Part shown: piece after piece, positions 25,151-28,164 of the stretch
Layout of the letters: the number at the start of each line of letters is the position of its first letter
Position numbering within the stretch: position 1 is the stretch's first letter
DNA from: a virus
DNA length: 44,450 nucleotides
Reading direction: 5' to 3' (one strand)
UHGV virus genome: UHGV-0157893
Program-made: the position numbers and the translations under genes
Notes under the pieces: model-generated
Told to the model about the DNA's origin: nothing
The model's database searches: none
What the model saw: only the letters and a program-made list of their open reading frames with translations

Positions 25151-25636
25151 TCACACCTCGTCTTCTACTTCCTGGACGATGCGGGCGATCTCTTCTTTCG
25201 TGACTTCAACCTGAACGGGCGCTTCTTCCTTGTTGCCGACGATCTCCTGTGTGACGCGTTCGCCGTATTTGCGCGGCTGAAGTTTTGCCAGTAGCCACTT
25301 GCGCGTTTCAATCATTAGTTGGTGGCGTCGCAACTGATCTTTATCTGCGTTCTCTGCTGCATCAGCCAGATCGATGATTTCATCAGCCAATACCTCGAAG
25401 CCGATCTCCTTCGCGCGCGCGTACATGATCGAGAATTCCGGTACATCCCTAAACCATTTCAGGATTGTGGAACGGGTAGGCATACCAGGCATTTTCGAAA
25501 TTTTATTAATACTCTGACCATCCGCCACCAGTTCACAGATTTCTAATGCTTTTTCTTCGGTATAACCATGCGGACGGCCCACCTTTTTAGCGGCTGGCTT
25601 TTTATCGTCAGCCTTTGCCTTTTTAGTGCGGGCCAT
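25151..25636 (-). CDS. terS: Terminase small subunit
   Basis: ATG 25636 with GAGGTG RBS; Lys-rich N-terminus then HTH-like KALEICELVADGQSINKISK; stop abuts terL start. Confidence 0.7.
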   Translation of the reverse strand: MARTKKAKADDKKPAAKKVGRPHGYTEEKALEICELVADGQSINKISKMPGMPTRSTILKWFRDVPEFSIMYARAKEIGFEVLADEIIDLADAAENADKDQLRRHQLMIETRKWLLAKLQPRKYGERVTQEIVGNKEEAPVQVEVTKEEIARIVQEVEDEV

Positions 25637-25647
25637 AATTTCACCTC

Positions 25648-25734
25648 TCAAAACCATTTGCACAGAATATATAAACACGCAATTAATGTTGCGCAGTATG
25701 TTAATACTTCCAACCAGTCGAATAGCTCTTTCAT
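25648..25734 (-). CDS. Tiny hydrophobic ORF 6 (28 aa, predicted single TM helix)
   Basis: ATG 25734 with AAGGG RBS; MKELFDWLEVLTYCATLIACLYILCKWF; stop TGA 11 nt before the terS RBS. Confidence 0.45.
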   Translation of the reverse strand: MKELFDWLEVLTYCATLIACLYILCKWF

Positions 25735-25744
25735 TGTTTACCCT

Positions 25745-25789
25745 TTATGCGAAGAAAACGATAACTACTAACAACGTGCATGTAGCCAT
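25745..25789 (-). CDS. Tiny hydrophobic ORF 5 (14 aa; weakest of the array)
   Basis: ATG 25789, weak RBS; MATCTLLVVIVFFA. Confidence 0.2.
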   Translation of the reverse strand: MATCTLLVVIVFFA

Positions 25790-25805
25790 GATTAAGAAAT
25801 CACTG

Positions 25806-25880
25806 TCAGGCATTGATAATAAACCCCACAATAACAACCGCCGCGATACATACGAATAATACAGCTTCGATAGTTTCCAT
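25806..25880 (-). CDS. Tiny hydrophobic ORF 4 (24 aa)
   Basis: ATG 25880 with AGGTGA RBS; METIEAVLFVCIAAVVIVGFIINA. Confidence 0.45.
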   Translation of the reverse strand: METIEAVLFVCIAAVVIVGFIINA

Positions 25881-25888
25881 ATATTCAC

Positions 25889-25957
25889 CTATTGAGTCAG
25901 CGCGGTCATGGTAAGAACAATCGCAACGATCAGGAAAAAGAAATCAAGCCATTTCAT
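25889..25957 (-). CDS. Tiny hydrophobic ORF 3 (22 aa)
   Basis: ATGA start/stop overlap with ORF 2; GGGAG RBS; MKWLDFFFLIVAIVLTMTALTQ. Confidence 0.45.
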   Translation of the reverse strand: MKWLDFFFLIVAIVLTMTALTQ

Positions 25958-26034
25958 TTTTTAAACTCCCGGTATACGTCAACGGCAATGACTACAACTA
26001 CAGCCACCAGCAATAGCATTTCGTATGCGTTCAT
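25954..26034 (-). CDS. Tiny hydrophobic ORF 2 (26 aa)
   Basis: ATG 26034 with GAAGGTG RBS; MNAYEMLLLVAVVVVIAVDVYREFKK. Confidence 0.45.
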   Translation of the reverse strand: MNAYEMLLLVAVVVVIAVDVYREFKK

Positions 26035-26044
26035 GTGAACACCT

Positions 26045-26119
26045 TCAGCTTTCAATGAATATCATGATCGCCAGCCATACAGCGACGCAGGCAGAAAGGG
26101 TAATGAGCGGGTCAATCAT
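26045..26119 (-). CDS. Tiny hydrophobic ORF 1 (24 aa)
   Basis: ATG 26119 with GAGG RBS inside the 3' end of the upstream gene; MIDPLITLSACVAVWLAIMIFIES. Confidence 0.45.
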   Translation of the reverse strand: MIDPLITLSACVAVWLAIMIFIES

Positions 26120-26121
26120 AA

Positions 26122-26706
26122 TTAGCCTCGTTTAAAGCTCATCACACGCGGCACATACGCATCTTTTGCTTTAGGCTTACGTTTGCCTTTCTTAGCTGGT
26201 TTTTTCTCTTCTTTCGGCTCCTCTGCCTGCTCTACTGCCTGCTCTGCTGCATCAGTAGCCTTCTCTGCCTGCTCTAATGCCTTCTCTACGACTTCAGCGG
26301 CCTGCATTGCTGCCACCTGTGCTTCATTTGATTCCGCCAGGATGGGGAAGAATGCGTCAAAGATACGGCCTACCATGTAAGCGTAAGTCTCGTTTGCCGG
26401 ATGGCTGGGATCAGTGGTCGCTACGACGCCCACATCACTTAGAACGTGAAATGTCGTGTGCGCCGCTTCATGTACCAGCGTTCCTAACTCATTGTCGAAT
26501 ACTGCGATCACGTAGAAGTTACCGCCTTTCTCGCCAGTGCAAGTAAGCGTCAATCCTCCTGCCAGTTCGAAATCAGGTTCGATCGGAATTCCTGCCTTTT
26601 CGCAAAATTCATAAAACATCTCGCGGGTCGGGCAAAAGAAAACGGTTGTATGCTCAAAGAGCGGGATCTTGAAGTGAGGCAATTTTAAGCCTTTACCCTT
26701 AGCCAT
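26122..26706 (-). CDS. Hypothetical protein with HExxH metallopeptidase-like motif and Lys-rich tail
   Basis: ATG 26706 with AGGAG RBS; 194 aa; LVHEAAHTTFHV motif; C-terminus EEPKEEKKPAKKGKRKPKAK. Confidence 0.55.
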   Translation of the reverse strand: MAKGKGLKLPHFKIPLFEHTTVFFCPTREMFYEFCEKAGIPIEPDFELAGGLTLTCTGEKGGNFYVIAVFDNELGTLVHEAAHTTFHVLSDVGVVATTDPSHPANETYAYMVGRIFDAFFPILAESNEAQVAAMQAAEVVEKALEQAEKATDAAEQAVEQAEEPKEEKKPAKKGKRKPKAKDAYVPRVMSFKRG

Positions 26707-26967
26707 CAGAATAATCTCCTGTCTGGTTTGCTTTTACTTCCTGTTTATCCATTGCCAGGAATGATATAAAACACTGAAAACGGCGCTTCGTGAGTACCGT
26801 TTCCGGGATTTTATAAAGTGGGCGCTTTCTTCTACCCAGGTAGCGCCGACCTGTTAATGGGACTGTTGATCCGGTATTACGTGTTTTTGACTATTCCGCC
26901 GTCGCTCGCGGGAAGGATTGGCCCGGTTATGGCTGGCTGGCGGAAACGGCGACACGTCCACGCGCTG

Positions 26968-27450
26968 TTATTCTTTGCGTAAGCACTGCGTTTTGATGTA
27001 GTCCTGTAGGCCAGTGATCTGTGCGTCTTTCGTTTTTAGTTGTTCTCTGAGGGATAGATAAGCTGATTCAGCTGATTTAGAGAGTTGGCAGGTGGCTCCA
27101 TCAATGCGGCTGGCGGTTCCTGCGGAGTCGGACACTCGCACGGGTATTGCGTTGACGCGCAGCCTGATAGTGCCGTTATCAATGCCAGTGCGCAGATCGG
27201 CAATGTCAGATCTGATAGCTTTAATCTCATCGTGATACCTCTTATCAAGTTTTGACAGTTCGGCGTTTCGCTCCTTCATCTGCTGAATAGTGTTACTTGC
27301 TGTTTTCAGTGCGCCTTGCGTGGTCGTTAATTCTTCCTGTAACCTTGTCGCCTCACTCTGGTAATGGCATGTTACGGCTGTAAGGCTGGCAATGATGCAA
27401 ACAACAGCGGCGATAATTAACGCCTTCACCTTGTCCACGTTTCCCCCCAT
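26968..27450 (-). CDS. Rz: Spanin, inner membrane subunit (Rz)
   Basis: Track start TTG 27456; ATG 27450; N-terminal TM helix then coiled coil; follows endolysin. Confidence 0.75.
27036..27230 (-). CDS. Rz1: Spanin, outer membrane lipoprotein subunit (Rz1), embedded in Rz
   Basis: ATG 27230 with AAGAGGT RBS; lipobox LSGC; Pro-rich mature region; fully inside Rz in another frame. Confidence 0.7.
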   Translation of the reverse strand: MRLKLSDLTLPICALALITALSGCASTQYPCECPTPQEPPAALMEPPANSLNQLNQLIYPSENN

Positions 27451-27917
27451 TCGCAAACGGCATATTCAACATCACGGCGGTTTACCAGGCCTTGCCACTT
27501 CTTACCGCCAGCGTATACCCAGCGTTTAAGCTGTGCGCACGCTTCTGATTTCTTGCCGTCATTGAGTAGCTTTAATAAGGTTGATGTTTTGAAGTTGGTT
27601 GCGCCTACGTTATAGGCGAATGAATAAAGTGCTGCGCGGGTAAAATCTGATACTTCGACTTTGATATATGGGTCAATCGCTTTTGCGGTCTTGTGTAGAT
27701 CTTTATTTAACAAAGCATCGCATTCTGATTGCGTGTAAGTCTTGCCCAACATGATGTCTTTTCCGGTGTGACCATAGCAAACAGTCCATACACCAACAAC
27801 ATCACGATAAGGATCGTATTCCACGCCCTCTAATGGCTTAATCATCACCGCCGCAATAGCGATCGCCCCACCAGCCGCCGCCGCAACAATTTTGTTTTTC
27901 AGCGATTGGCTAATCAT
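27426..27917 (-). CDS. SAR endolysin (T4-lysozyme-like, GH24 type)
   Basis: ATG 27917 overlapping holin stop; N-terminal Ala/Gly-rich weakly hydrophobic helix (SAR-like); catalytic-region [23 protein letters not shown]. Confidence 0.8.
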
Positions 27918-27918
27918 G

Positions 27919-28119
27919 TTACTTATTCCCCATTCGCGCGTCGTGTTCCTCTTGCGCTCGCTTGTTCTCCTGTGATTTAAAGTAATAATTAACGGCAAAT
28001 GTGCCAATGGTTGATAGGATACCCACGAAGACGGCAACGTCATTTATGGTTATCGCACCGAAAAAAGCGGTTACGGTCCCAGTAACATAAGCGCACGCCG
28101 CCCGTATTCTGTCGAACAT
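27919..28119 (-). CDS. Holin (pinholin-like, two TM segments)
   Basis: ATG 28119 with GGAGGT RBS; 66 aa; two hydrophobic helices and charged C-terminus; directly upstream of SAR endolysin. Confidence 0.7.
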
Positions 28120-28140
28120 AGATTTACCTCCAACAAAGCA

Positions 28141-28164
28141 AAAACCCGGCACGGGGCCGGGTAG
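28141..28164 (-). terminator. Intrinsic terminator just upstream of holin (tR'-like position)
   Basis: Minus strand reads CCCGGC-cccgt-GCCGGG then TTTTTGCTTTG, 20 nt before the holin RBS. Confidence 0.6.

Follow-up and report, generated by a model that had tools for sequence, protein, structure and literature searches.

Between the lysis cassette and the packaging genes of the virus genome UHGV-0157893 lies a reading frame for a 194-residue protein that carries a HExxH motif and a strongly basic C-terminal tail. The question raised by this locus is whether the motif marks a genuine metallopeptidase and, if so, what such an enzyme would do for a phage. The window analysed here is the whole stretch of 44,450 nucleotides, and the features that bear on the question are collected in Table 1.

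Table 1. Features of the 194-residue gene and its 5' flank (window coordinates; aa, residues of the encoded protein)
Feature	Coordinates	Strand	Basis
Complete CDS, 194 aa	26122..26706	-	ATG start; stop codon 26122-24
Shine-Dalgarno AGGAG, 9 nt 5' of the ATG	26716..26720	-	Read directly from the sequence
Two terminator-like hairpins in the Rz-to-gene spacer	26764..26848	-	Second hairpin followed by a U-rich run
Predicted zincin-like (mini-gluzincin-type) domain, aa 1-125	26332..26706	-	AlphaFold2, PHROG 1365 and BFVD matches
HEAAH (H79, E80, H83): two predicted Zn ligands and catalytic base	26458..26472	-	Invariant in 127/127 homologues
N105-E106-T-Y-A-Y110; E106 predicted third Zn ligand	26377..26394	-	Conservation; fit to gluzincin motif
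Acidic Ala/Glu/Gln-rich helical stalk, aa 126-165, pI 4.1	26212..26331	-	Model, composition, length alleles
Polybasic, predicted disordered tail, aa 166-194, pI 10.6	26125..26211	-	pLDDT, conservation, dN/dS

The holin, endolysin and Rz/Rz1 genes (26968-28152) lie upstream of the gene on the same strand, and on its 3' side, again on the same strand, five tiny hydrophobic ORFs (25648-26119) are followed by terS and terL. Among 47 related viral contigs, 32 distinct alleles of the gene were found, with a synonymous divergence of ~0.45-0.58. For these alleles dN/dS amounts to 0.063 for the domain (residues 1-125), 0.104 for the helical linker (residues 126-165) and 0.095 for the basic tail (residues 166-194). 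Judged from these sequences, this is a genuine gene on which selection acts. A sequence-only reading of the locus had described the ORF with its HEAAH motif (residues 79-83) and basic tail (residues 168-181), together with the neighbouring lysis cassette, tiny-ORF array and packaging genes, and this description is borne out, with all of the neighbours on one strand. The strongly basic tail that it pointed out is real and under selection as well (dN/dS ~0.1), and its proposal of an accessory slot between lysis and packaging genes is supported by the comparisons described below. The two activities that it suggested, a protease acting on host or defence proteins and a DNA-associated factor, are each plausible and could be combined in one protein.

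The tiny ORFs (25648-26119, minus strand) are arranged in tandem and encode 24, 26-33, 22, 24 and 28 residues, with one predicted TM-like stretch each. The slot that they occupy between the 194-residue gene and terS is variable in length among mEp021-type contigs, ranging from ~470 to 1300 nt across related contigs, and in mEp013 an HNH endonuclease gene is found under the equivalent stretch. The terS ORF as listed (25151-25678, minus strand) begins at a GTG, 14 codons 5' of the likely true start, MARTKKAK..., which matches the 161-residue terS of mEp021.

Searches of Pfam, NCBIfam and PDB sequences with the single 194-residue protein yielded only chance-level matches or low-complexity matches driven by the tail. 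Residues 7-131 match PHROG 1365 (E=1.7e-29), which is also matched by all 127 sampled representatives of the family. An exhaustive profile search against 1.84 billion cluster representatives returned 948 clusters at E<=1e-3, of which 263 reached E<=1e-10; counted at 50% identity, the family has ~950 clusters, and almost all of their representatives are 110-140 residues long. The region shares ~90% identity with the E. coli siphoviruses of the mEp021 group (mEpimmI; mEp554, mEp044, mEp021 and others), and the 194-residue gene is the orthologue of mEp021_49 (gp49), annotated as 'hypothetical protein'. The orthologue is present in all seven mEp021-group phages of the phage collection, and the gene is common in E. 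coli prophages. By tblastn, homologues at 34-45% identity were detected in P22-like phages, including Orf-129 of ST64T and phage L and gp70 of epsilon34, which lie between Rz and terS; further homologues are hkcC of HK620 and an unannotated P22 ORF between sieA and orf59a, in the immI moron. A locus scan with a closer alignment returned mEp021-like and P22-like loci only.

These PHROG 1365 members (hkcC of P22 and HK620, Orf-129, gp70 and gp49) share the same H-E-H-E set with the window protein at 34-96% identity, and each of them is a small accessory gene of a phage. Unlike the window protein, most members of the cluster consist of 110-140 residues and have no tail. In the P22 literature hkcC is a gene of unknown function (PMC2629481), and since PHROG 1365 has no assigned function, membership by itself says nothing on mechanism. 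A literature search found no functional study of hkcC, of MPTase-PolyVal or of a phage SprT-like anti-defence protein, and gp49 is absent from the supplements of the mEpimmI paper. Among the source labels, a 62%-identical homologue (P0118) is designated 'PolyVal metallopeptidase superfamily domain' and another homologue 'SprT-like family protein'. Two E. coli alleles (P0009 and P0010) encode 209-211 residues owing to a C-terminal read-through extension beyond ...FKRG, which is probably explained by a mutated stop codon or by an assembly variant. The hkcC ORF of P22 bears no annotation in RefSeq NC_002371.2, where it overlaps the sieA promoter that the record does annotate.

In an alignment of 127 diverse PHROG 1365 members, with a mean column identity of 15%, H79, E80, H83 and E106 alone are invariant. 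Because these four residues are retained throughout such a diverse set, the HEAAH motif is, on the sequence evidence, more than a chance occurrence; a screen of all six frames of the window, covering 28,434 residues in open stretches no shorter than 60 residues, gave no second HExxH. Three further residues, G51, G93 and Y110, are each more than 90% conserved, Y110 being present in 124 of the 127 sequences. It had been proposed from the sequence that HEAAH, followed by TTFHV, is a canonical zinc-metallopeptidase signature, which implied a ligand in the second segment. As regards HEAAH, this proposal is supported by the invariance of the motif in all 127 homologues and by a confidently predicted zincin-like fold. 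The implied ligand in TTFHV is not supported: its histidine, H87, is replaced by Phe, Asp or Tyr in other homologues, no other His after HExxH is conserved in the alignment, and D91 is kept in close relatives only, whereas E106 is invariant. E106 is located 23 residues after H83, at the start of a predicted helix (residues 103-130), and the family signature reads HExxH-(x, about 22)-[NG]-E-x-[FY]-[CA]-Y. A third ligand that is a glutamate at this distance points to a metal site of the gluzincin type. In ArdC, IrrE and Spartan the corresponding helix carries the motif (E,H)xx(A,F,T,S,G) and a conserved Tyr (PMC7213743), and the E-T-Y-A sequence at E106 agrees with this motif. Y110 is a possible stabiliser of the substrate or the transition state.

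The structure of the domain was predicted with AlphaFold2 at a pLDDT of 87 and a pTM of 0.82. The model contains strands 11-13, 21-25, 51-57 and 63-69 and a backing helix 28-38, followed by the active-site helix 74-91 with HEAAH and a next helix, starting at residue 103, that bears E106. The mixed beta-sheet and the backing helix thus precede the active-site helix in the model, as is characteristic of zincins, and the predicted architecture is a minimal zincin layout of the gluzincin type, from which the geometry of a metal site would follow. A Foldseek search of the PDB with the domain model gave no match; against BFVD it returned 27 small phage proteins at E<1e-3, from widely differing phages, a few of which are labelled SprT-like or metalloprotease. 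When the family profile was compared with PDB sequences, the marginal matches were zinc endopeptidases without exception (myroilysin, BMP1/tolloid and peptidyl-Lys endopeptidase), with alignments spanning a strand and the HExxH helix. We conclude from the model and these matches that the domain most probably belongs to the zincin/gluzincin superfamily, outside all curated families.

In the full-length model the glutamate helix runs on into the stalk, forming a single helix of ~58 residues (104-161), and residues 166-188, with pLDDT <50, are predicted to be disordered. Charge is sharply divided between the segments, with a pI of 5.1 for the domain, 4.1 for the linker and 10.6 for the tail. Residues 168-181, KKPAKKGKRKPKAK, form the most basic 14-residue segment in all ORFs of at least 80 residues in the window. 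Alleles of 180, 190 and 194 residues differ by in-frame insertions or deletions within the linker, whereas all of them retain the C-terminal sequence ...KKGKRKPKAK-x-A-x-VPRVMSFKRG. A C-terminal extension of at least 25 residues is present in 11 of the 127 family representatives (~9% of clusters); six or seven of these 11 have a charged helix leading into an end rich in Lys, Arg and Pro, and within the mEp021 group a second, different version of the tail is again basic (...KEAKRKAKTKEPPKV...). Because such extensions recur in this way, the stalk and tail are, as far as the sequences indicate, a recurrent and selected add-on that lies outside the core mechanism of the family. Docking of the tail into the active site, by an auto-inhibition as in minigluzincins, was considered and rejected as unsupported, the tail having a pLDDT <50. 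The terS product of the window begins with an arm of a composition similar to that of the tail, MARTKKAKADDKKPAAKKVGRP; this arm is rich in Lys, Ala and Pro and ends in an AT-hook-like GRP.

The spacer between Rz and the gene measures 260 nt, and both hairpins in it are stable. In the mEp021 record the corresponding position bears an annotated terminator. A search of the coding strand for sigma-70-like promoters gave none. Since such a promoter was not detected and terminator-like hairpins precede the gene, the simplest reading is that it is probably read from a Q-antiterminated late transcript; a terminator in the spacer implies read-through by antitermination.

Taken together, these observations favour, with somewhat better than an even chance, a cytoplasmic mini-gluzincin metallopeptidase that is accessory, made late and tethered by its tail to a polyanion, for which DNA is the best candidate; that the protein binds zinc, acts as a peptidase, is expressed late and is tethered to DNA, and what kind of substrate it has, is what we infer in this reading. 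The metal would be held by H79 and H83 of the active-site helix and E106 of the next helix, with E80 as the general base and Y110 probably aiding catalysis. The gene would be transcribed with the late operon from its position between the lysis cassette and terS/terL. The acidic stalk of ~40 residues and the disordered polybasic end would most likely serve to tether the enzyme, which would then cleave a protein on or near the DNA, around the time of genome packaging.

How the gene is distributed bears on this reading and on its competitors. Of 47 mEp021-type contigs, 46 have the gene flanked by Rz and terS, and one short contig shows terS only. In a 52%-identical relative it abuts a terS of the Sf6 type by 4 nt. 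In P22-like loci terS is located 0-2 genes downstream of the homologue, and a DUF2560 gene (orf-118) precedes the homologue in 31 of 33. This DUF2560 gene (PHROG 571; L002 2141-2497) lies 5-7 nt 5' of the Orf-129 homologue (31/33, L052-L084), an adjacency that holds even where the downstream gene differs. A partnership of the orf118 and orf129 products was rejected, as orf118 is missing from the window and from other lineages, and the pairing is therefore attributed to common descent of a single block. P22, HK620 and their relatives have a paralogue in the immI moron, and some phages have both copies: ST160, UAB_Phi20, SE1 and ST-87 carry two divergent paralogues, one of the Orf-129 type by terS and one of the hkcC type in the immI moron. 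Homologues are also found among the small genes 5' of the RNAP1 subunit gene in an N4-like Gamaleyavirus, a position that would correspond to the early/middle region of N4, and within a run of small hypothetical genes in the jumbo phage Motura.

A family member is also part of a conserved block in metagenomic phages with SU10-type capsid genes. The block starts with a helicase gene, two ParB-like genes, a gene for an ABC/SMC-like ATPase and variable small genes, and ends with the family member and a ~300-residue PHROG 886 protein whose gene overlaps it by 4-14 nt; where the contig is long enough, a TerS-like gene and terL are encountered 2-3 kb further downstream. The ~300-residue protein is encoded at L089 6563-7486, L093 6557-7444, L095 6567-7460 and L099 7378-8307, and its L089 copy matches PHROG 886 ('ABC transporter ATP-binding subunit') without a Pfam match. 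The ABC/AAA-like ATPase upstream of the family member in these phages has ~215 residues, and the two proteins may together represent a split SMC/ABC-type ATPase. The variable slot of the block contains thioredoxin/glutaredoxin genes, GIY-YIG/HNH homing endonuclease genes and a Tad2-like gene (PF11195, anti-Thoeris sponge family; L095 5729-6004, L098 8729-9004, L099 3920-4150). Because the loci differ so widely across phages, the 194-residue gene is considered an accessory gene, which is frequently, not always, located just 5' of packaging genes and among DNA-handling genes.

Such a distribution raises the possibility that the protease serves counter-defence or host takeover, cleaving an immunity or housekeeping protein of the host, and is not specially tied to DNA; the tail would then tune localisation or stability only. 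We regard this as a possible explanation rather than a probable one. It would account for accessory or moron sites in unrelated phages (immI of P22/HK620 by sieA, an N4-like phage and the jumbo phage), for the two divergent paralogues in some P22-like phages, for the Tad2-like gene directly 5' of the family member in L095 and L098 and nearby in L099, and for the lack of a tail in most family members. However, the PADLOC defence and anti-defence models gave no match beyond scattered chance-level ones, the inferred late expression would be poorly timed against immunity unless the protein were carried into the next host, and the tail is strongly conserved where it is present.

The reading of a late, DNA-tethered peptidase can also be extended, although the extension is doubtful. 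The protein would then be a phage analogue of the DNA-dependent proteases, with the stalk and tail as a switch that opens on DNA, and would strip or inactivate genome-bound proteins shortly before packaging, in its course or after co-injection. Candidate targets would be host nucleoid proteins, roadblocks and DNA-targeting defence nucleases, and the apparently independent gains of basic tails as well as the terS/terL and ParB/SMC-like neighbours would reflect a general 'DNA-clearing' function.

More doubtful still is a protease for morphogenesis or packaging, which would process a protein of the virion or of the packaging machinery, or a cargo that rides on the DNA into the capsid by its basic tail and is ejected into the next cell. 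The proximity to the packaging genes would fit, as three unrelated lineages have the gene directly or closely 5' of terS/terL, with no gap to terS in L091, and the basic tail may be likened to DNA-condensing internal proteins. The N4-like homologue by the RNA polymerase subunit gene, in what we presume to be the early/middle region, would suit an early need. Its position is not fixed, however, among phages with common head modules, P22 assembly is not known to need proteolytic processing, and the P22 copy lies in the immI region, which is dispensable. Virion data from the closest group point in the same direction. Mass spectrometry of mEp021 virions identified 16 proteins, and the only two outlying structural genes both lie upstream of the lysis region (mEp021 paper), whereas the gp49 gene is downstream of it; in the mEp021 record mEp021_41 is labelled 'virion structural protein' and gp49 has no structural label. 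The missing label and the location of the outlying structural genes argue against abundant packaging of gp49.

That the zincin fold serves no peptidase role, the protein being another metal-dependent hydrolase or a pseudo-enzyme binding module such as an acidic decoy, is quite improbable. The acidity of the domain and stalk and the weak match of one family member to a HExxH-type peptide hydroxylase model would be compatible with it, but invariance of the catalytic Glu and of all three ligands in 127 members is unusual for a pseudo-enzyme, and the weak sequence and fold links all lead to peptidases. An antirepressor protease of the ImmA/IrrE type, cleaving a phage or host repressor, is highly improbable, since Peptidase_M78 is not matched, no XRE/HTH gene neighbours the gene in the contexts examined, the domain is about half the size and the gene lies in a late operon and not by a repressor. 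A role in peptidoglycan or envelope lysis was rejected: neither a signal peptide nor a TM segment is present in the protein, and its paralogues are found far from lysis genes.

The cytoplasmic, tail-tethered mini-gluzincin favoured above would give a concrete and testable handle on a gene carried by the well-studied phage P22, from a cluster that is widespread in P22, HK620, N4-like and jumbo phages and in the gut-prevalent mEpimmI coliphages. The sequence cluster itself (hkcC/PHROG 1365) is already known, and a few of its members have been labelled automatically as metallopeptidase-like. Beyond this annotation, the alignment predicts Glu106, and not a His, as the third ligand, the model suggests that the family forms a minimal gluzincin of its own, which none of the curated families covers, and sequence comparison points to a stalk-plus-polybasic-tail variant that is under purifying selection and appears to recur in distant clades. 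If the tailed variants are DNA-tethered proteases, the theme of DNA-stimulated zincins, as in SPRTN, ArdC, IrrE and CapP, would reach into late functions of phages; if they are not, the protein would be one more small accessory protease.

Several known systems resemble the window protein in part. With the SprT-like proteins (PF10263; SPRTN, Wss1 and bacterial SprT) its domain shares HExxH and, by prediction, the zincin fold. SprT-like is the sole recurrent Pfam match of the family at permissive thresholds (32 of 127 representatives at E<=5 and four at E<0.01, with a best value of 1e-4), followed by other putative metallopeptidase families. The SprT-like model does not match the window protein itself even at E<=10, and hhalign comparison of alignment A2 with E. 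coli YggI/SprT, a weak test with a single-sequence template, gave a probability of 4.8% with the motif unaligned. The window protein has no zinc-binding subdomain, unlike SprT-like proteins, and the third ligand of Spartan is a His (PMC7213743), in contrast to the Glu at +23. A minimal catalytic layout like that predicted here is known from the minigluzincins proabylysin and projannalysin, in which a catalytic domain of ~100-125 residues comprises a sheet, a backing helix, the HExxH helix and the Glu helix.

The C-terminal metalloprotease of ArdC corresponds to the window protein in its gluzincin HExxH, the Glu of the next helix and the conserved Tyr, and ArdC also resembles it in being borne by mobile elements and coupled to a DNA-binding module. 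ArdC and the polyvalent proteins are multidomain, whereas the window protein stands alone with a disordered basic tail. MPTase-PolyVal is absent from the Pfam matches listed for the window protein and its relatives, which are stand-alone proteins of 110-190 residues, and the link of the family to PolyVal is the source label of P0118 only. Peptidase_M78 (ImmA/IrrE/CapP, COG2856) gave no Pfam match, and an adjacent XRE/HTH partner gene was found in none of the loci examined. The ImmA/IrrE/CapP proteins are repressor-cleaving peptidases stimulated by ssDNA; the window protein is much smaller and follows a different genomic logic. ImmA/IrrE proteins are about twice the size of the window domain. 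DNA-stimulated zincin peptidases are described in PMC7213743, PMC10904395 and bioRxiv 10.1101/2022.04.27.489752. The window protein fell outside each of the SPRTN/Wss1, ArdC, IrrE/PprI and CapP families when membership was tested, and its likeness to them would be one of analogous design logic; in SPRTN and Wss1 a protease is likewise joined to a DNA-binding basic region.
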